This document shows, piece by piece, positions 2,856-50,905 of a stretch of DNA of 64,000 nt. The translations under genes were made by a program, and so were the position numbers. Position 1 is the first letter of the stretch; each line of letters starts with the position of its first letter. This DNA comes from Mobula hypostoma (taxonomy: Eukaryota): positions 55,368,001 through 55,432,000 of the forward strand of contig NC_086108.1 of the NCBI RefSeq assembly GCF_963921235.1, read 5' to 3'. The notes beneath the pieces are model-generated. The model saw only the letters and a list, made by a program, of their open reading frames with translations, was not told the DNA's origin and did no database searches.

Positions 2856-2900
2856 TTCCGGCCTAAAACATCGACTGTTTACTCTTTTCCAAAGATGTGC
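2856..2900 (+). repeat. Inverted PLE terminal-repeat fragment (3' half of hammerhead)
   Basis: cggcctaaaacatcgactgtttactcttttccaaagatg resembles cggcccgaaacgtcgactgtacctcttcctatagatg in other copies, opposite in orientation to the adjacent PLE body. Confidence 0.7.
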
Positions 2901-3149
2901 AAAACAATTCGCATGCTCATTTCATGTGTTACCACTCATTGTTCCTATCATTCTGGTCATTTCTTATTTTCTGTTGGGGCGCAAAATCCAGTGTAAGAAG
3001 TTGTGCCCCATTTTCGTCAGTTGGTAATGGATAATTAGGCAAATGACAAGGGCCATTTAAAAGTAATTAGTTTTAAGCTGAGCATCCTGAGGCAGGGAGA
3101 TGAGGCTTTGGCAAGAGTGCAGAGGCTGAGGTTTCTGTTTTTCTTTATT

Positions 3150-6100: not shown

Positions 6101-6500
6101 TGGGTTCTTTCTGGATTAGAGAGCATGTGTTATGAGGAAATGCTGAATGAGCCAAGACTTTTCTCTATGGAGTGAAGGAGGATGAGAGGTGAATTGTAGA
6201 AATGTCTAAGTTGACAGAAGGCTTAGATAGAGTGGACAGTCAGTGCCTCTTCCCAGGGTGGCAATGGCTAATACTTTTAATGTGCTTAGAGGTAACTATA
6301 GGGAAAATGTCAGAAGTAGGTTACTCACAGTGGTAAGTGTGTAGAGTGCACTGGTGGGGGTGGTGAACATTTAAGAGACTTGTAGATCAGCATATGGAGA
6401 GTTATTTGGGAGGGAAGGATTAGAATGATCTGGAGTAGATTAAAGGGATGTCACAACATTGTGGGGCCTGTACTGGGCTGTACTCTATGTTCCATGTTTA
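3150..6500 (+). mobile_element. Near full-length, heavily decayed CR1 LINE (ORF1 esterase, APE endonuclease, RT, tail)
   Basis: tgcttcccaggtgccagagtcagggatgtc (CFPGARVRDV, SGNH-type ORF1) near 3677; atgggtgacttcaaattccctaatattgat (MGDFKFPNID) near 4673; ORF 5125-5328 (DKSLGSDRIYP..NVIPLFK); CR1 tail near 6460-6495. Confidence 0.9.
4042..4125 (-). mobile_element. Short LINE 3' tail (Rex1-like) inserted in CR1 ORF1
   Basis: (agaatc)n followed by tttattatcacc, the same terminus as the Rex1-like tails near 9295, 19425 and 56500. Confidence 0.6.
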
Positions 6501-6739
6501 GTTACACTATTTCTTCTGTTAATGTTTGTGTGGATCAATGCACACTCAGCCTCATTTCATCATCTGAAGAGATTTCTTCTAGACACTCTCTAATCTTAAT
6601 ATTTCCTGGTTTCTTACCTTAATGCTAGACCAACTGAAAATAACACATTACCTACTTACTTAATAGGAATTGCTGTATTTAATCACCCTATCCTAGTTCT
6701 AACCAAGCAGGCTTAACTATTTAGATCTGTAGAGACCCA

Positions 6740-12558: not shown

Positions 12559-14782
12559 CAGTGATTTCCAAAGTGGGTGATATTTCACCTCCCCCGAGGG
12601 GGTGGTGGGATTTTCTAAGGGGTTGATAAAAATCTGATTTCAATGAGCACATATTTGCCTTATCTCTTGCTAACCCACCGTTCTCATAGACTTTGCTCGA
12701 TGCCTGTTATAGTTGTTGAAAAGCCAAGTGACACTTCTGTATTTGGCATATCATAAGAAACCATTTTATTTCCGGGCGTGGACAGCGCATTATTGCCATT
12801 CAGTACTTTAGAACAGTGTTAGCATGTACGATTTCCATACTCTAATCCTGCAGTGACATAATTCCTGTGCATTAGGGAATGGCTTTCTATGGGGTAAAGT
12901 TCAGAACCTGCCCTTTCAAATGTCCTTGACTGAATTTCTCTAGCCCACTGTATACAATATTTCATTGCCAAATCTGGAAAACCCCATACAATCGGAGAAT
13001 AACTTGATTCTGCCAGCAGTAAGGGAGGTTCTCAGTATAGTTTTGTATAAGTCGCCAGACTAAATAATTAAAGTAATTCTGCTCAGTAACAACTCTGCTC
13101 AAAGATGAATAGATGAAATGTCTGAGAATGTAGATGACACATTGTGCAATATACTTAGGACAACAGAATTTGCTCTGCAGTTGGAGGAATCAAATTTGCC
13201 AGTCAATGAATTTTTGCTCCTTGGCTACGTTCACTTCATAAAAGATGAAAGCATGGTTGAAGAGATGTTATTTGCAAGGGGATTAGAAACAAATATGAAG
13301 GGAGAGTTATTATTCCAGGTTTTTGAGGAATTTTTCAAAGAGAAGGGCATTCTGCTGTCATCAGAATTCTTGCTTTTGCAACAGATGGGACACCATCAAT
13401 GACAGGATGCCACCATGATGTTATTACTTTCTTGAAAAAAGCTGTACCTAAAATATTTACCATTCACTCTGTAAATCATAGACAACATCTTGTTGCAAAA
13501 AAAAATCTGTGTTGGCTCACAAATCCTTAAATATTGGTATCACAGTAGTAAACAAAATCAAGTCCCATGCTCTCAATTCTTGACTATTTTGAGAGTTTCG
13601 AATTGACAGTGATGAACAGTTTGAAAGTGTGCTGTTGCACACAGAAGTCAGGTGGCTCTCAAAAGGAAACTGACACACACTTATGCACTTTTTGAAACTG
13701 ATAAAGTTGTTTGAAGACCCAATTGCTTCATTCAGTAATCAAAACAAGAATGTTTGGCATGAGATTGCTTATTTGTCAGAATTATTCAAAGTTTAATGAA
13801 ATTAATCTTCAATTGCAAGGAAATGATGTGAATCTTATTAAAGTCAAATCAGTCCTCTCCACATTTCTGTTTAAGTTAACCCTATTTAAGTGTATCATTG
13901 GTTGTAATAATCTTTCTTCAATTTCTGAGCCTCGGTGTTGGAGGAACAAGAAAGAAAGAATTCCATATGATGATCTACAAGTATACTGCACCCACCTGGG
14001 TGGACAGCAGAAAAACAAGTCAGAGATTTCACACAAAAAATGCTGGTGAACGCAGCAGACCAGGCAGCATCTATAGGAAGAGGTACAGTTGACATCTCGG
14101 CCCAAAACGTCGACTCCAGCATTTTTTGTGTGTGTTGCTTGAATTTCCAGCATCTGTAGATTTCCTCGTGTCAGAGATTTCACTTTTTTTTTTCTCGATC
14201 CAATCTCCAGATTGGGTAATAAATCCATTCCTGAACACTGAAGCTGAAGTTCCAAAAATCACATCAAGATTTTTAGTTGCAGAAAGAAATCTTTGAATGC
14301 TATCCTGCACTGTGAAAAAGGTCAAGATGTTCTTTATCACCCATCCAACATCATATTTGGTGAAGCATGTTTTCAGTGCCGTTGCCAAATTCTTTCAAAG
14401 CAGACTAAAATAACTGAATGTGGGATCTGAGATTCCCGAGTGACATTCAGTCTAATGTTGAGAAGCTGATGTCATTGCACCAAACCCATCCATCTCATTG
14501 AAAAGTGAAAAAAGCAATGAATGGTGAATAGTTGGACCACTAATGTATGCTCTAAAGTTATTGAAAATCATTTTACTGTAATTAAAGATATAATTTGTAG
14601 CTTTAAATATATTAGAATAATGTTTGCAATTATTTGTAGCTGCTTCAAATTTGCAGTTCCTATTTTCTTTGTGCATCATAAATCAAAATTCTTTATAGTT
14701 TTTATGTAATTGCAAAATAGGGTGGTGGTTTGGTGATGTGGTTTGGGAGTGAAGGTGGTGGTAAAAAAGTTTGGAAGCCAAG
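12559..14782 (+). mobile_element. hAT (Charlie/Buster, SCAND3/ZBED-like) DNA transposon, decayed
   Basis: Left end cagtgatttccaaagt, eroded right end aagtttggaagccaag; ORF 13118-13402 (FALQLEES..LLLGYVHF); cacacagaagtcaggtggctctcaaaagga (HTEVRWLSKG) near 13637; ORF 13711 (FNEINLQLQG). Confidence 0.88.
14033..14169. mobile_element. Mini fold-back PLE-derived insert with 14-bp TSD
   Basis: TSD gtcagagatttcac at 14019-14032 and 14170-14183; a reverse copy of the PLE terminal repeat is followed by a forward copy ending gatttcctcgt. Confidence 0.9.
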
Positions 14783-20004: not shown

Positions 20005-20935
20005 AAAGGAGATAAAAAAGGGAATGAATGAATGAATAATAAATAAAATAAATAAATAAATAAGGGATGGTGTATGAAGGGGAGGTGGGGCATTAACGGA
20101 AGTTAGAGAAGTCAATGCTCATGCCATCAGGTTGGAGGCTACCCAGACAGAATATAAGGTGTTGTTCCTCCAACCTGAGTGTGGCTTCATCTTGACAGTA
20201 GAGGAGGCTGTGGATAGACATATCAGAATGGGAATGGGACGTGAAATTAAAATGTGTGACCACTGGAGGATCCTGCTTTCTCTGGCGGACAGAGCATAGG
20301 TGTTCAGCAAAATGGTCTCCCAGCCTGTGTCGGGTCTCACCAATATACAGAAGGCCACATCGGGAGGTCCAGACGCAGCATATCACCACAGCCGACTCGC
20401 AGGTGAAGTGTCGCCTCACCTGGAAGGACTATCTGGGGCACTGAATGGAGGAACAACACCTTATATTCCGTCTGAGTAGCCTCCAGATTGATGGCGTGAA
20501 CTTTGACTTCTCTAACTTCCGTTACTGCCCCTCCTCCCCTTCGTACCCCATCCCTTATTTATTTATTATTCATTCATTCCCTTTTATATCTCTCTCTTTT
20601 TTTCTCCCTCTGTCCCTCTCACTATAACTCCTTGCCTGTTCTCCATCCTCTGGGCTCCCCTCCCCCTTTCTTTCTCCCTAGGCTTCCTGTCCCATGATCC
20701 TCTCCCTTCTCCAGCCTTCTATCCCTTTTGCTAATCAACTTTCCAGCTCCTGGCTCCATTCCTCCCCCTCTTGTCTTCTCCTATCATTTTGGATCTCCCC
20801 TTCCCCCTCCCACTTTCAAATCTCTTACTAGCTCTTCTTTCAGTTAGTCCTGATGAAGGGTCTCGGCCCAAAATATCAACTGTTCTTCTTCCTATTGATG
20901 CTGCCTGCTGCGTTCACCAGCATTTTCTATGTTCG
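20005..20935. mobile_element. PLE with inverted architecture: minus-strand GIY-YIG fragment (20005-20443) abutting a plus-strand terminal repeat (20445-20935)
   Basis: ORF 20093-20419 (HFTCESAVVICC..LLYIGETRHRLGDHFAEHL); 20008-20172 is roughly the reverse complement of 20446-20592; degenerate hammerhead at 20846-20882. Confidence 0.9.
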
Positions 20936-21519
20936 TAGCTAACATAGTCATCTGTTGTTACAACAGATATATTATGTCTATACCTTCTTCCATTTATAAG
21001 ATGGATTGCATAGAAGGCTAAATTCTCAGTTTTTCTATTGACCTTTTATCTAGAAAACCAGTTCCTCATGTGGGGTGAAAAATATTTGAAACTTGGTGTC
21101 CACTTTGGGAGCAGATCTCTAAACCTGCAATATCACCTTGGACCTTCACTAACCCCTTCCAAATGATGATCACTTCTTCAAAATCAAACTTTTTTTAAAA
21201 AATGAGCTCTTCACAGTGTTTGGAGTTGGTCACCAGCTGCCTGTTTGCACACCTGATTTGTTTGGTGATTCATAATAAATCAACTATAATATTTGAATTA
21301 GAAATAAAGAGTTTCCCGCACTGCTTGTAACAAAAGTTGGAAGGCAATTCAGGATGAAAGGGAAAATGGTGATTGTTTGGAAGTTTATCCATATCTTATT
21401 ATTCCCTATAATAAAGACTAAACAAGAGTCAGTATACAACAGACCAAAATCAAAGTGTTCTTGAGTAAATGTTAGGAAATCGATGGAAGGTATTTAAACA
21501 AAGATAAGATATTTAAATA

Positions 21520-34459: not shown

Positions 34460-36845
34460 ATAAGCACAAGAAAATCTGCAGATGCTGGAAATCTAAAGCC
34501 ACACACACAAAATACTAGAGGAACACAGGTGGTCAGGCAGCATCTATGGAAATTAATAGATAGTCAATGTTTCGGGTCAAGACCCTTCTTCAGGAATGAG
34601 AAGGAAGGGGGAAGATACCAGAATAAAAAGGTGAGGGGGAGGGGAAGGAAGAGAGCTAGAAGACGCTATGTGAAGCCTGATGGTTAGGAAAGGAAAATGG
34701 CTGGAGAGAAAGGAATCTGATAGGAGAGAAAAGTGGACTACAGGAGAAAGAAAAAGAGGAGAGGAATAGAGGAAAGAGGGTGGGAGGAAAATTTGTTTAC
34801 CGGAAGGAGAAATCAATATTCATGCCATCAGGCTGGAGGCTACCCAGACAGAATAGAAGCTGTTGCTCCTCCATCCTGAGGGAGGCCTCATCTAGGCACG
34901 CGAGCAGACAGCTCAGAAAGGGAATGAGAATCAGAATTTAAATGTTTGGCCATCAGGAAGTCCCGCTTGTAACAGATGGTGTGAAGGTGTTCGACAAAGC
35001 GGTCCCCTAATTTACAATGGGTCTTACCAATGTAGAGAAGGCATTGGGAGCACCGGACACAATAGACCAGCCCAGCAGATTCACAGGTGAAGTGCTGCCT
35101 TGCCTGGAAGTAATGTTTGGGGTCCTGGATGGAGGTGAGGGAGGAGGTGAATGGACAGGTATAGCACTTAGGCTGCTTGCAGGGAGAAGTGCTGGGAGGA
35201 AGATTAGTGGGAAGGGACGAATGGACAAAGGAATCGCAGAAATGGGGGCAGCGGCAAATGAAGATGGCGGAAGGCATGAAGGAAAATGTATTGGATACAG
35301 AGGCTCATGGAGTGGTAGGTAAGGACAAGAAGAACTATCACTGTTGAGGCAGTGGGAAGGTGGGGTGAAAGTAAATGACCGGGAAATGGAGATTTGGGTA
35401 AAGGCAACATCAATGGTAGAGGGAAGGATACCCCATTCTTTAAAGGATGAGGACATCTCTAATGTCCTGGAGTGAAAGGCCATGTCCTGAGAACAGATAC
35501 AGCAGAGGTGAATAAACTGAGAAAAGGGAATAGCACTTTTACAGGAGATAAGGTGGGATGAGGTATTGCCGAGATAGCCGTGGGAATCAGTAGGGTTATA
35601 GAAGATGTTGGTTAACAGTTTGTCTCCAGAGATGGAGATAGAGAGAGATCAAGAAGGGGATCAAGTGAATTTAAGGGCAGGGTGAAAGTTAGAGGCAAAG
35701 TGGATAAAATTGATGAGGTCAGCATGAAGCAGTGCCAACACAGTTGTCAATGTAGCAGAGGAAGAGCTGGGGAGTATTACCAGGGAAGGTGCCAAACATG
35801 GATGGTTCTACGTAGCCAATGCAGAAGCAGGCGTAGCTGGGGCCCATGTGAGTGCCCATCACTACCCCTCAAACTTGGAGAAAGTGGGAGGAGCTAAAGG
35901 TAATATTCTTCAGAGCGAGGACCAGGTCTGCCAGACAGAGGAGGGTGTTGGGGTGGGGAATTGGTTGGTTCTTTCATCAAGAAAGAGGTAGAGAGGTTTG
36001 AGGCCTTCTCGATAGGGCATAGAAGTGTATAGGGACTGAATATCCATGGTGAAGATGAGGCAGTCAGGGTCAGGGAATTGAAGGTTACTGAGGAGATTGA
36101 GGGCATACAAAGTATCACTGATATATGTGGGATGGGACTGAAGCAAGGAGGCTAGAATGGAATCGAGATATGAAAACACTAGTTTAATGGGGCAGGAGCA
36201 AGCAGAGACCCAAAGAGTCTGGTTTGTGGATCTTGGGTAGGAGGTAGAAGGTGTTGTAAGGAAACTATGAGTTTTGTGGCAGTGGTTGGGAGATCTCCAG
36301 TGTGGATGAGGTTAGTGGTGAAAGAGGTTTATGATGGTCTGGAGTGGGATCCTCTTTGAGGGCTAAGTATCTTGAGAGTTGCCACCTCACCAAGGTAGAG
36401 GTCAGTGTGCCACACTACAACAGCACCCTGTTTGTCTGTGGGTTTGATGACAAGGTTGAAATTGCTGCAGAAAGAGTGAAGGACAATACGTTCAGAGGGA
36501 GCAAGGTTGGGGGAGGAGAGAGAAGTTTTGAAGTCGAGACAGTTGATGTCTCGTTGATAATTTGAAATGAAGAAGAAGATCTTTTCATTTCATTCAGTGT
36601 CCAAGAAGAGAAAGAGGGTTGAAGACAGGAGAAAGGATTATTAGCATGGGATGTAGAATCCTTGCCAAAGTGTACTCGGAAACTGAGGAGATGAGAGAAG
36701 AACAGACGCAGAACTCAGAGTTGCAGGCAAAGGGAATCAAAGGTGAAGCCCTTTCTGAGGAGAGAACATTCTGCCTCAGAGAGGGGCAGGTTGGAGGGAA
36801 CGGTGAAAACCCGGCAAGGATTAATGCTGGGATCAGGCGGGGTAC
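34460..36845 (-). mobile_element. Long Penelope-like element (RT, Cys-rich linker, GIY-YIG, terminal repeat), decayed
   Basis: ORF 35910-36179 (IFTMDIQSLYTSMP), ORF 34888-35277 (CKQPKCYTC..YCVRCSQCLLYIGKT); terminal repeat 34460-34790. Confidence 0.92.
34562..34597 (-). ncRNA. Hammerhead ribozyme motif, partly degenerate
   Basis: Minus strand reads attc CTGAAGA a GGGTC tt GACCC GAAAC att gact. Confidence 0.7.
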
Positions 36846-40059: not shown

Positions 40060-40424
40060 ACACTATAACTCCTTCCCTGCTCTCCATCCTCTGGGCTCCT
40101 CTACCACTTTCTTTCTCCCTAGGCTTCCCGACCCATGATCCTCTCCCTTCTCCAGCCTTCTATCCCTTTTGTCAATCAACTTTCCAGCTCTTAGCTCCAT
40201 CCCTCCTCCTCTTGTCTTCTCCTATCATTTCGGATCTCCCCCTCCACCTCCCACTTTCAAATCCCTTACTATCTCTTCTTTCAGTTAGTCCTGACGAAGG
40301 GTCTCGGTCCGAAACGTCAACTGTACCTCTTCCTATAGATGCTGCCTGGCCTGCTGCGTTCACCAGCATTTTTTGTGTGTGTTGCTTGAATTTCCAGCAT
40401 CTGCAGATTTCCTCATGTTTGCGT
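40060..40424 (+). mobile_element. Solo PLE terminal repeat
   Basis: Highly similar to 20620-20935; ends ccagcatctgcagatttcctcatgtttgcg. Confidence 0.9.
40287..40323 (+). ncRNA. Minimal hammerhead ribozyme (core intact, weakened stems)
   Basis: agtc CTGACGA a GGGT ctcg GTCC GAAAC GTC aactg. Confidence 0.8.
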
Positions 40425-40499
40425 GACTATGTTAGCTATTTGAAAAGGTAGTTTTACATTAATTTATTTCTAAGAAAGTCCTTTTCATAATTCTGAGTA

Positions 40500-48212: not shown

Positions 48213-49232
48213 GTGTGTAACACCTGGATAGCACCGGTCTTACCACATGTGACTAGTCGCCATACTCTTTGAGAAAATCAAATTACACTGAGTGCTGGTA
48301 GACTATCAGAAGAGCCAGGTATCAGAAAGAGGGAGTGAATAGAAACCATACTCTTCTGGGGATAAGGTTTTTTTAATAAGAAGAAAAACTATACTAAATA
48401 TTTACATGAGCAAGAACAATTCAAAATTCCAACATTTTGTTGATAAGTTCCAAATCTGAGATATTAAACCATAACAAATTCCTTTTTAATTAGAAGCAGT
48501 GAGATTCCTTTATTACTCTGATCTACCTAACTAGACCTAGTGTTACTCCCTGTTTAAAAGTTTACAGACTGAACTTTCCTTTTTACTTATCCCTAGTTAG
48601 TTAGAAAACCAAATATAATTCCTATTCTCAAGTATTATATTTAATTTCAGTTTCAGTTCCAGGCAGCATATCTACAAGTTTAATTTCAAATTCAAAAATT
48701 ATATATACACAGTTTAACTCCTTTCACGACAATTCTCCAACATCACAACTTTTAAACAAAGTAAATCTCATTCAGTAACTTCCAAAGTCTTTGCAAAAGT
48801 AGTCAACTCTTGCAGAAAATCAAATTCAGATTCTTCGAATGAAAATAAACTTGTGCATCCAACTGTATAAAATCCTCTGCGTCATTACACATTTCGTTCC
48901 CGCGCTGGTTCTTCACCTTGGGTGGCACACCATCTTGTTTCTTAGTTCATTGAATGAAATAGTTTATCATCCACAGTAAGTCAGTTCATAAACTTGTACA
49001 AAAACTTTACCAAATCCCTTGGTATGATTTTACAAAACTAATTCCTGACTACACAGTAGGGATTTTGGACACTGGTCTCTGCCGATATTGTCTCGTTATA
49101 GCTGTAGCTTCAATAAATCTTTTATCGCTATCGTCTCTCCTCCAGGAGTTTCACCCTGAGGATTTCCAGTTAGTAGGATAAAGATACTCACTACTAATTC
49201 CACTCTAACAGTTCATGTCTTCAGTTTCTAAT

Positions 49233-49431
49233 AACACACACAAAATGCTGGTGGAACGCAGCAGGCCAGGCAGCATCTATTGGAAGAGATACAGTCGACA
49301 GTGTCCTGATGAAGGGTCTCGGCCGGAAACGTCGACTGTACCTCTTCCAATAGATGCTGCCTGGCCTGCTGCGTCCCACCAGCATTTTGTGTGCGTTGCC
49401 TGAATTTCCAGCATCTGCAGATTTCCTCGTG
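49233..49431 (+). mobile_element. Mini fold-back PLE-derived insert carrying a hammerhead, 13-bp TSD
   Basis: TSD ttcagtttctaat at 49220-49232 and 49432-49444; arms about 49233-49299 and 49331-49397. Confidence 0.92.
49303..49337 (+). ncRNA. Minimal hammerhead ribozyme (stem II closing pair mutated)
   Basis: gtc CTGATGA a GGGT ctcg GCCG GAAAC GTC gac. Confidence 0.78.
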
Positions 49432-49666
49432 TTCAGTTTCTAATCGTTGCTTTGTTTTTCTCCTTATCCATACGTGCGTCCAGCCCCGCTCCGCCCTCAC
49501 ATAGTGTTGTTTTTCAAATTTTCTTTTTTTAAAATTGCTAACCCTTGTTTTTATCCCTCTGCAGGTGGAGCTTTCTGACATTACATCTTGGGGTTTAATT
49601 AATCTGGGTTACTTCCTCAGAGAGCTAAACTAATTTGGCATGTCCCCTTTGACTCTCACCATTACA

Positions 49667-49854
49667 GCATGTCGTGGAAAATGCAGCTAGTGCTCCATGT
49701 AGATGTGCTCAAAGGTGGGGTGGGCTTTACCTGTGATGGACTAGGCTGTACCCACTGCCTTTCGTAGGCATTATTGTTTCCATACCAGGCTATGATGCAA
49801 GCAGTCAGTATACTCTCCACCGTGCATTTACATGAGTTTGCCAAAGCTTTAGAT
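49667..49854 (-). mobile_element. Rex1/Babar fragment (resumes at 53342)
   Basis: VESILTACIIAWYGN in ORF 49662-50180; colinear with the copy at 59230-59420. Confidence 0.85.
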
Positions 49855-50905
49855 CTGGGGTCTAATTGTGGTTTGATTGTGGTTTCCCTTCTACCGTCAT
49901 CAATGATGCCCTCACCCGCATCTCCTCCATTTCCCGCACTTCGGCCCTCACCCCATCTTCCCGCCACCACAACAGGGACAGAGTTCCCCTTGTCCTCACC
50001 TACCACCCCACCAGACTCCGGATCCAGCACATTATCCTCCACAACTTCCGTCACCTTCAACAGGACCCCACCACTAAGCACACCTTTCCCTCTCCCCCCC
50101 CCCTCCGCTTTCCGCAGGGATCGGTCCCTCCGCGACTCCCTTATCCGCATGTCCATCCCCACAGATCTCCCACCCGGCACTTACCCCTGTAAGCGTAAGT
50201 GCTACACCTGTCCCTACACCTCCTTTCTTGCCACCATTCAGGGCCCCAAACAGTCCTTCCAGGTGAGACAACACTTCACTTGTGAGTCTGTTGGGGTCAT
50301 CTATTGCATCCGGTGCTCCCTGTGCGGCCTTCTCTACATCGGTGAAACCCGACGCAGATTGGGGGACCGCTTTGTCGAGCACCTCCATTCCGTCCGCCAC
50401 AACAGACAGGATCTCCCGGTAGCCACGCACTTCAGCTCTGCTTCCCGTTCCCATTCAGATATATCCATACTCGGCCTCCTCTACTGCCATAGTGAGGCTA
50501 AACTCAGATTGGAGGAGCAACACCTCATATACTGTCTAGGTAGTGTCCAGCCCCTTGGTATGAACATAGAATTCTCCAACTTCCGGTAATTCCCTCCATC
50601 TCCCTTACTCTATCCCTATTTCACTCTGCCGCCTCCCCTAGCTGCCTATCACTTCCCTCATGGTTCCGCCTCCTTCTACTACCCATTGTTTTCCTGCCTA
50701 TCACCTCCCTGCTTCCCCTCCCCAACCCCTTTGTCTTTCAAATTACTGGTTTTTCAACTGCACCTACCAGCCTTTTTCCAACCCTCCCCCACCTTCTTTC
50801 TTCAGTCCTGACGAAGGGTTCCGGCCCGAAACGTCGACTCATCGTTTCCACTGATGCTGCCCGATCTGCCGAGTTCCTCCAGCGTGTTGTGAGTGCTGCT
50901 TAGAT
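49855..50905 (+). mobile_element. Relatively young 5'-truncated PLE (linker, GIY-YIG, terminal repeat)
   Basis: ORF 49866-50192 (RDRVPLVLTYHP) shifts in the poly-C at about 50094-50103 into the frame of 49774-50589 (CKRKCYTC..GVIYCIRCSLCGLLYIGETRRRLGDRFVEH..MNIEFSNFR*). Confidence 0.95.
50804..50839 (+). ncRNA. Minimal type-I hammerhead ribozyme, intact
   Basis: AGTC CTGACGA a GGGT tccg GCCC GAAAC GTC^GACT: stem I AGUC/GACU, stem II GGGU/GCCC, complete core, predicted cleavage after 50835. Confidence 0.88.

Follow-up and report, generated by a model that had tools for sequence, protein, structure and literature searches.

The 199-nt fold-back unit at 49220-49444, coordinates that include its target site duplication (TSD), is probably a dead, 5'-truncated, head-to-head insertion of a Penelope-like element (PLE), in which both nicked strands are likely to have primed reverse transcription (RT) at two adjacent sites. 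We place the probability of this reading at about 0.8. The unit belongs to a known class of PLE insertion units, which are inverted and 5'-truncated, have a tail on one side and contain a minimal hammerhead ribozyme (min-HHR). It is a by-product of integration and does not propagate itself; it has neither a promoter nor an open reading frame (ORF) of its own and carries one minimal hammerhead core. The arms of these PLE fold-backs reproduce the final ~100-135 nt of the PLE insertion unit, in which the hammerhead is followed by 67 nt and an optional tail, and the same build recurs through the genome with other TSDs and other turning points. Coordinates are those of the window, which is the whole 64,000-nucleotide stretch of Mobula hypostoma DNA that was analysed. 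Element positions are given relative to the predicted hammerhead cut, with BLAST end calls that are good to about 2 nt.

The insert is flanked by the 13-bp TSD TTCAGTTTCTAAT, which stands at 49220-49232 and again at 49432-49444, the same 13-mer at both ends with 13 of 13 positions identical. Between these copies lie two inverted arms of 67 nt each (49233-49299 and 49331-49397), which are 96% complementary, differ by three mismatches, all of them transitions, and are separated by a spacer of 31 nt. The left arm (49233-49299, minus strand) is a minus-strand copy of element ~+65 to -3 and has no tail; blastn sets its limits at -3 on the 5' side and +65 on the 3' side, at 92% to a natural reference copy. 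Its outer end is the inner RT start site, referred to here as site 1 (..GTGTGTT(GC)), and its inner end is the hexamer GTCGAC (49294-49299), which is position -3. The loop (49300-49330, plus strand) corresponds to element -34/-31 to -4 and forms the 5' portion of the forward arm, comprising the joint AGT, GTC-CTGATGA (core C3-A9, 49306-49312), a bulged A, helix II GGGTCTCGGCCG and GAAAC. It leads into GTC (49331-49333) and GAC at the start of the right arm, with the predicted cut after 49333. The portion of the forward arm that is duplicated by the inverted arm runs on the plus strand from this GTC/GAC to ..TGTGCGTTGC at site 1 (49331-49399). Beyond it, 32 extra nt (49400-49431, plus strand) form a one-sided tail, CTGAATTTCCAGCATCTGCAGATTTCCTCGTG, which extends from site 1 to the outer start site, site 2 (..GTG(TTTGC)), and is absent from the left arm. 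The limits of the forward copy by blastn are -31 and +101, and the joint between the two arms is ambiguous by 0-3 nt.

A preliminary description, made from these letters alone, had reported a perfect TSD around the insert, near-perfect inverted arms, a hammerhead core in the loop and an arm that stops at GTCGAC about 3 nt from the cut at 49333. These observations were all borne out; an exact match to the 31-nt core string is present a single time in the window, compared with 0 occurrences in 100 shuffles. It had also drawn attention to CTATTGG/CCAATAG, a variant shared by both arms. The variant is real but it is not private to this unit; it is found in both arms of 4 of 27 aligned fold-backs (L019, L024, L027 and L030) and is therefore a subfamily marker. 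The suggestion that the unit might be the smallest such product had to be given up, since 7 of the 29 pairs in an unselected sample are shorter (131-184 bp). As RNA the unit is predicted to form one long hairpin of -134.9 kcal/mol (z = -17.7), and 0 of 200 shuffles were as stable. If transcribed, this predicted hairpin would bury the 3' strand of helix I, and an inverted repeat of this kind could yield dsRNA; the roles put forward in the preliminary description, a built-in off switch or a dsRNA source, would depend on it.

The hammerhead core CUGANGA .. GAAA .. NUH is present as CTGATGA (49306-49312), GAAA (49326-49329) and GTC (49331-49333). Read by eye, the parent element has a helix I of 4 bp (AGUC/GACU) and a helix II GGGU/GCCC with a tetraloop; in the 199-nt unit helix I is shortened to 3 bp and helix II is closed by a G-G pair. 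No Rfam family was matched at gathering score in the whole window. At E values up to 10 the region 49100-49560 matched no hammerhead model, only sub-threshold miRNA and lncRNA models lying on the long hairpin. The silence of Rfam on the hammerhead is expected because the PLE min-HHRs described by Cervera and de la Pena 2014 (PMC4209133) are hammerheads without helix III. The core resembles the motif given in that paper in its CUGAUGA, in the unpaired base before helix II, in GAAA and GUC, in the lack of helix III and loop 3 and in a short helix I (AGUC/GACU in the parent). It differs from the same description in that the unit has a single core, a G-G closing pair in helix II and no Rfam match. 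The paper also reports that single min-HHRs show no self-cleavage in vitro, that the motifs also occur in pairs on opposite strands, 100-700 bp apart, and that truncated PLEs have brought them to huge copy numbers (PMC4209133).

The right half of the unit, which comprises hammerhead, arm and tail, recurs within the window in solo copies at 40061-40425, 20446-20940, 34469-34647 and 50775-50901. The solo copy at 40061-40425 (plus strand) is a 5'-truncated PLE copy with a tail that covers element -258 to +107, and it served as a natural reference. A second head-to-head insertion is found at 14020-14184, with the TSD TCAGAGATTTCAC at 14020-14032 and 14172-14184. Its inverted arm (14033-14094) ends in GTTGAC at -3; its forward part begins inside helix II, contains an internal deletion and has the tail. 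A search of the organism's own genome (3.48 Gb) with the 199-nt unit gave 4349 first-look candidates, of which 40 were scored. Upstream of the hammerhead, homology among related copies extends over more than 1.8 kb, with variable 5' truncation.

One copy, L073, is a full unit with its own TSD (TTTAAGATC(T)CCCC). Within the TSD a partial upstream repeat (pLTR) is followed by the hammerhead, ..GTATGTTGC at site 1, ~37 nt and a frame of 1043 codons; downstream of the frame there is a 3' UTR of ~300 nt and a second hammerhead, and the unit ends exactly at site 1 without a tail. The tail stretch of L073 (3099-3136) runs directly into the ORF, as it does in full-length copies. The pseudo-LTR is recognised as a repeat of 2881-3098 at ~6393-6613, with CCTGACGAAGGGTCTCGGCCTGAAACGTC in each. 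Inspection of the frame by eye reveals KPADKGG (the DKG motif), FTMDVQSLYTSIPH, YIDDCIG, a CKRNKCYTC linker and a putative GIY-YIG motif, GVIYCVRC..LLYIGETRRRLGDCFAEH (GVIY..LYIGET..EH). In Pfam, RVT_1 is matched with an E value of 1.5e-5 and GIY-YIG with 0.043 at the expected place, both below the curated cut-off, and degraded ORF pieces of two other copies (L061 and L062) gave weak RVT_1 matches only. The frame has 300 homologues at E <= 0.001, of which the best 120 reach E 1e-150 or better. These 120 carry PF00078, PF28514 and PF26215 in precomputed annotation, joined by PF01541 in 28 of them. Compared with the sequences of the PDB, the 1043-aa frame had no match at E values up to 1. The protein search of the genome returned 79,670 first-look candidates, and 6 of 133 scored copies have open frames of 1038-1043 codons. 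Judged by these motifs and repeats, the parent appears to be a canonical endonuclease-bearing PLE with a hammerhead in its pseudo-LTR; the CKRNKCYTC linker suggests a Neptune/Nematis-like clade.

We aligned 27 distinct fold-back loci that had been retrieved with the 199-nt unit, a set that is biased toward look-alikes of the query. Each of the 27 has its own TSD, and both turning points and junctions are heterogeneous. In 18 of them the tail-less arm does not stop at GTCGAC but goes on to include ribozyme sequence in reverse complement (..GTCGACGTTTCGGGCC..). Most of the 27 share the outer end ..GTGTGTTGC on the tail-less arm, and a tail ending ..CGTGTTTGC is found on the other arm only. The arm pairs trace to several PLE subfamilies.

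Because of the query bias of this set, an unselected 1.264 Mb was sampled, made up of the window, 200 kb downstream of it and 200 kb from each of five other contigs. Three natural reference copies served for mapping every copy in the sample, with positions counted from the predicted cut. The sample contains 151 copies that reach the 3' region; 99 copies are solo and 29 head-to-head pairs, 131-1119 bp long, are present, so that the 199-nt unit is neither rare nor the smallest of its kind. A TSD of at least 9 nt surrounds 21 of the 29 pairs, compared with 40 of 812 mismatched-flank controls, and the pairs are therefore single events. The median identity of arms is 0.93 within pairs and 0.83 between pairs (Mann-Whitney P = 1.8e-6); on this measure, both arms of a pair come from the same source. 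The closest match of an arm is its own partner in only 5 of 21 pairs, as would be expected of a star-like family, and the distribution of identities within and between pairs was used instead. By simple extrapolation from 29 pairs per 1.264 Mb, the 3.5-Gb genome would hold ~80,000 such by-products. In contigs from four sequencing runs of related organisms (48600-50000, 85% likeness) the 199-nt unit and parts of its flanks appear as high-copy repeats. No record among those listed covers 48600-50000 from end to end, and none of the 15 joints listed there skips the insert, so that these contigs gave no empty site.

The inner ends of the sampled copies span -763 to +55. Their 5' ends pile up at -32 (23 of 151) and -31 (14 of 151), with 53 of 151 between -35 and -27. 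Position -32 coincides exactly with the 5' edge of helix I (4 bp, AGUC/GACU) at the front of the hammerhead, and it also fits an initiator-like TTA(+1)GTCC; the pile-up may mark either a transcript start or an RT barrier. Among solo copies that start between -35 and -27, a repeat of at least 9 nt was found in 11 of 35 (controls 74 of 1190), which means that part of the -32 peak in old copies (<80% identity) may only reflect where alignments break off at the CT-rich region upstream.

The 3' ends of the sampled copies form two groups, one at site 1 (+61 to +75) and one at site 2 (+100 to +111), and the two sites share the terminal motif GTGTT(T)GC. Site 1 lies in a stem-loop of the parental RNA according to fold prediction. 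In all 15 classifiable pairs one arm ends at the inner site (..GTGTTGC) without a tail, and the other has a tail of ~35 nt that ends ..GTGTTTGC. The distance between the sites gives tails of 32-37 nt, the tail-less arm stopping at ..GTGTGTTGC and the tailed arm at ..CGTGTTTGC. Solo copies use site 1 and site 2 in a ratio of 36:42. Mixed pairs would therefore make up 50% under independence, and 15 of 15 mixed pairs has a binomial P of 2.8e-5. In the other 14 of the 29 pairs one or both 3' ends are unclear; among these 14 is the pair C1 36893, both arms of which pass site 1 (+102 and +84).

How such a unit could arise is suggested by published work. PLE insertions include an inverted 5'-truncated copy and a tail of 30-40 bp, often at one end only (PMC8557442). 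The PLE protein of Anolis cleaves and extends both DNA strands in vitro (PMC11167929). It begins reverse transcription at either of two neighbouring sites inside the RNA, the tail being the stretch between them (PMC11167929), and no difference in start-site use was seen between the strands (Frangieh et al. 2024, PMC11167929). Among the matches listed in a literature search, none on dual priming by PLEs was more recent than Frangieh et al. 2024. For the 199-nt unit, the GIY-YIG endonuclease would nick both strands with a stagger of 13 bp. The bottom-strand 3'-OH would start a cDNA at site 2 and extend it to about -31/-34, where 5' ends of the family are most frequent, and the top-strand 3'-OH would start a second cDNA at site 1 that stops at -3. 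The two same-sense cDNAs would then be linked through their 3' ends, either by a template jump or by end joining, and fill-in of the staggered nicks would create the 13-bp TSD. The architecture is what is observed; from it we infer the order of events and the joining step.

An alternative with a single priming event would have one cDNA start at site 2, pass the hammerhead, snap back and copy itself. The self-copy would halt ~35 nt short of the 5' end of the cDNA, for example at a tail covered by protein or RNA, and the top strand would then copy the hairpin. The 199-nt unit itself looks as this predicts, with a tailed arm that is the longer one and supplies the loop, and a fold-back could be nucleated by GTCGAC or helix II, each of which is self-complementary. 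The tailed arm is also the longer one in 5 of the 15 classifiable pairs, and in 3 more the arms are about equal. In 6-7 of the 15, however, it is the tail-less arm that extends further 5'. One such pair is C22 38168, where the tailed arm covers +55 to +99 only and the tail-less arm -32 to +66, so that the tailed cDNA cannot have served as template for the tail-less arm. Nor can a tail-less cDNA give rise to a tail by copying, and snap-back therefore cannot be general; both strands are, moreover, extended on RNA in vitro (PMC11167929). We regard this alternative as unlikely for the 199-nt unit. Twin priming of the L1 type was also considered and rejected, because the two arms duplicate one 67-nt segment.

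The position of the turn, three nucleotides from the predicted cut, would also be accounted for if the template RNA had been cleaved by its hammerhead and run-off at the ribozyme site had set the turning point of the inverted arm. The preliminary description had proposed a template switch at the ribozyme as part of PLE integration; integration of a PLE is supported, but a switch at the cut site is not supported as a rule. Ends at -3 are seen by eye in four among 58 arms of pairs, two of them in the window: the 199-nt unit, 14033-14094, C36 102495 and C64 52552, all of them arms of pairs. All four, however, include GUC, and the template was therefore uncut when it was copied. The forward arm of the 199-nt unit likewise reads through the cut site. 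By BLAST, 3 of 151 copies in the sample end at -3, and since the count outside the index window is 2 of 143 (Poisson P = 0.086) we do not claim an excess of arm ends there. None of the 151 copies in the 1.264-Mb sample starts between -2 and +5, and no solo copy ends at -3 (0 of 99). When turning points are tabulated against the GUC site, as had been suggested, they prove heterogeneous, with a hot spot at -32/-31 and not at the cut site; the turn beside the ribozyme cut site in the 199-nt unit is a rare variant and no rule. In vitro, single min-HHRs remain uncut (PMC4209133), and hammerhead mutants of the Anolis element insert unchanged, with no RNA-seq reads ending at the site (PMC11167929). 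These published data agree with a weak or absent role of hammerhead cleavage, and a cut template is very improbable. Still less credible is the other proposal of the preliminary description, that the 199-bp unit is copied as a non-autonomous fold-back family, MITE-like or akin to the metazoan retrozymes. Dozens of ~200-bp units, 82-90% identical, were recovered with the 199-nt unit as query, but such a search ranks by likeness to the query, and even so the junctions vary, 18 of 27 arms entering the hammerhead. In the unbiased sample the units range from 131 to 1119 bp, and several PLE subfamilies stand behind the arm pairs. A MITE-like family was rejected on the spread of inner ends (-763 to +55), on these lengths and on the heterogeneous junctions of the 27 loci, at which TSDs also differ between copies. 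A metazoan retrozyme was rejected because two same-strand hammerheads flanking a monomer are lacking. The inverted arm stops before the core, and with one hammerhead core in the unit no monomer could be excised as retrozymes require. What remains of that proposal is its other half, a product of PLE integration, which is supported by arms that are the 3' end of a PLE and by the abundance of TSD-flanked head-to-head pairs (29 in 1.264 Mb).

The 199-nt unit can be compared with two published systems. The endonuclease-bearing (EN+) PLE insertion units described by Craig et al. 2021 (PMC8557442) share with it a strong 5' truncation, an inverted truncated copy that abuts a forward copy, a tail of ~35 bp at one end, a repeated part that contains a hammerhead, and a TSD that encloses everything. 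Unlike the units described there, the one studied here is a miniature of 199 bp in which neither arm reaches the ORF and the hammerhead core is present in one arm only. The Poseidon PLE of Anolis carolinensis (PAc, PMC11167929) likewise initiates at two neighbouring internal sites that enclose the tail, the tail running on into the beginning of the ORF, and its hammerhead lies ~70-90 nt upstream of the first of these sites. The ability of PAc to cleave and extend both strands (PMC11167929) offers a direct route to head-to-head arms. PAc differs in clade and in host, and the start sites of the present PLE are GU-rich on the RNA (..GUGUUGC / ..GUGUUUGC), a further difference from PAc (PMC11167929). 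The use of one site per arm in 15 of 15 pairs also stands against the lack of strand preference in PAc. Since Frangieh et al. saw no strand difference in start-site use, the strict rule of one of each is unexplained by their data (PMC11167929).

The rule of one start site per arm hints at a coordinated initiation at two sites. One tentative reading, which we consider possible though rather doubtful, is that the fold-back cDNAs are not independent and that a dimeric PLE protein primes both strands at two sites of a single RNA, or of an RNA dimer that would be held by the palindromes GTCGAC and ATCTGCAGAT. If this were true, each fold-back would be the fossil of one two-site initiation, and the -32 pile-up would mark the template RNA's 5' end.

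The 199-nt unit itself requires no new biology. The fold-backs are valuable as a genomic fossil record of a poorly understood transposition mechanism. Their two fixed outer ends, the one-tail rule and the spread of inner ends are in vivo counterparts of in vitro data that come from a single Anolis element, and the pattern of their ends argues against hammerhead cleavage setting the ends of the cDNA. For annotation, such units should be masked as PLE fragments and not called as hairpin RNA genes, and the sub-threshold matches to Rfam miRNA models are spurious.

Inverted insertions are also familiar from L1, where, in the twin priming that Ostertag and Kazazian are said to have described in 2001, the second nicked strand primes on the RNA and leaves an inverted 5' part within one TSD. 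The inverted part within a single TSD is a feature in common with the fold-backs. The inverted piece of L1 is the next, more 5' segment of the RNA, whereas the arms of the 199-nt unit both represent one stretch of 67 nt and start from two internal sites that are fixed. A few of the sampled pairs are L1-like, for example that at 20054-20940 of the window.

The two adjacent internal sites at which reverse transcription of the PLE RNA probably starts are site 1 (3' ends at +61 to +75, positions being relative to the predicted hammerhead cut) and site 2 (+100 to +111), and the stretch of about 35 nt between them, the tail, is present only in arms that end at site 2. In the unselected 1.264-Mb sample all 15 classifiable head-to-head pairs have site 1 on one arm and site 2 on the other, and solo copies use the two sites in a ratio of 36:42. 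A 5' end beyond the cut, where the hammerhead was not reached, is found in four of the 15 tailed arms versus one of the 15 tail-less arms of these pairs. Minor classes of 3' end occur in the sample at +84 (three copies) and at +91 (six copies, mostly of an older subfamily), these suggest further or shifted start points within the tail.

Another fold-back belonging to the index unit's family lies elsewhere in the window (14020–14184, target site duplication TCAGAGATTTCAC). Its inverted arm terminates at -3, as in the index unit, with GTTGAC, a CpG-type change. The forward part starts in the interior of helix II (TCTCGGCCC) and carries an internal deletion from +4 to about +45, followed by the tail. 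A head-to-head PLE pair of another kind is present at 20054–20940. It consists of an inverted piece spanning -685 to -289, which stops short of site 1, and a forward piece spanning -406 to +68; no target site duplication was recognised at the flanks of the pair. This pair is nearer to L1 twin priming with an overlap of about 117 nt.

Two self-complementary spots are found on the one RNA, a 10-nt palindrome in the tail (ATCTGCAGAT; window 49410–49424, and 3108–3122 of L073, a full unit elsewhere in the genome) and the 6-nt GTCGAC containing the hammerhead cut site (49331–49336). Judged by their sequence, these could allow two templates to pair.

The stretch immediately upstream of the hammerhead (..cttactc/atctcttc(c/t)ttcag-ttag-tcctga; L073 2960–3005, window 40250–40292) looks like a branch point, polypyrimidine tract and AG acceptor. 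According to PMC4209133, the 5' edge of helix I is where the intron of Drosophila virilis Penelope terminates, and the pile-up of PLE 5' ends at -32 coincides with this edge.

The family seems to have been active recently, because six of the 133 RT-region copies scored in its own genome lie within open frames of 1038–1043 codons and some copies in the 1.264-Mb sample are 97–99% identical to reference copies. An older, more diverged copy in two pieces (49980–50588 and 50775–50901; 75–79% identity to reference copies) lies 0.5 kb downstream of the index unit. The flanks of the index unit (48600–49200 and 49681–50000) are themselves repeats, and contigs from four runs of other organisms stack on them at 85–95% likeness.
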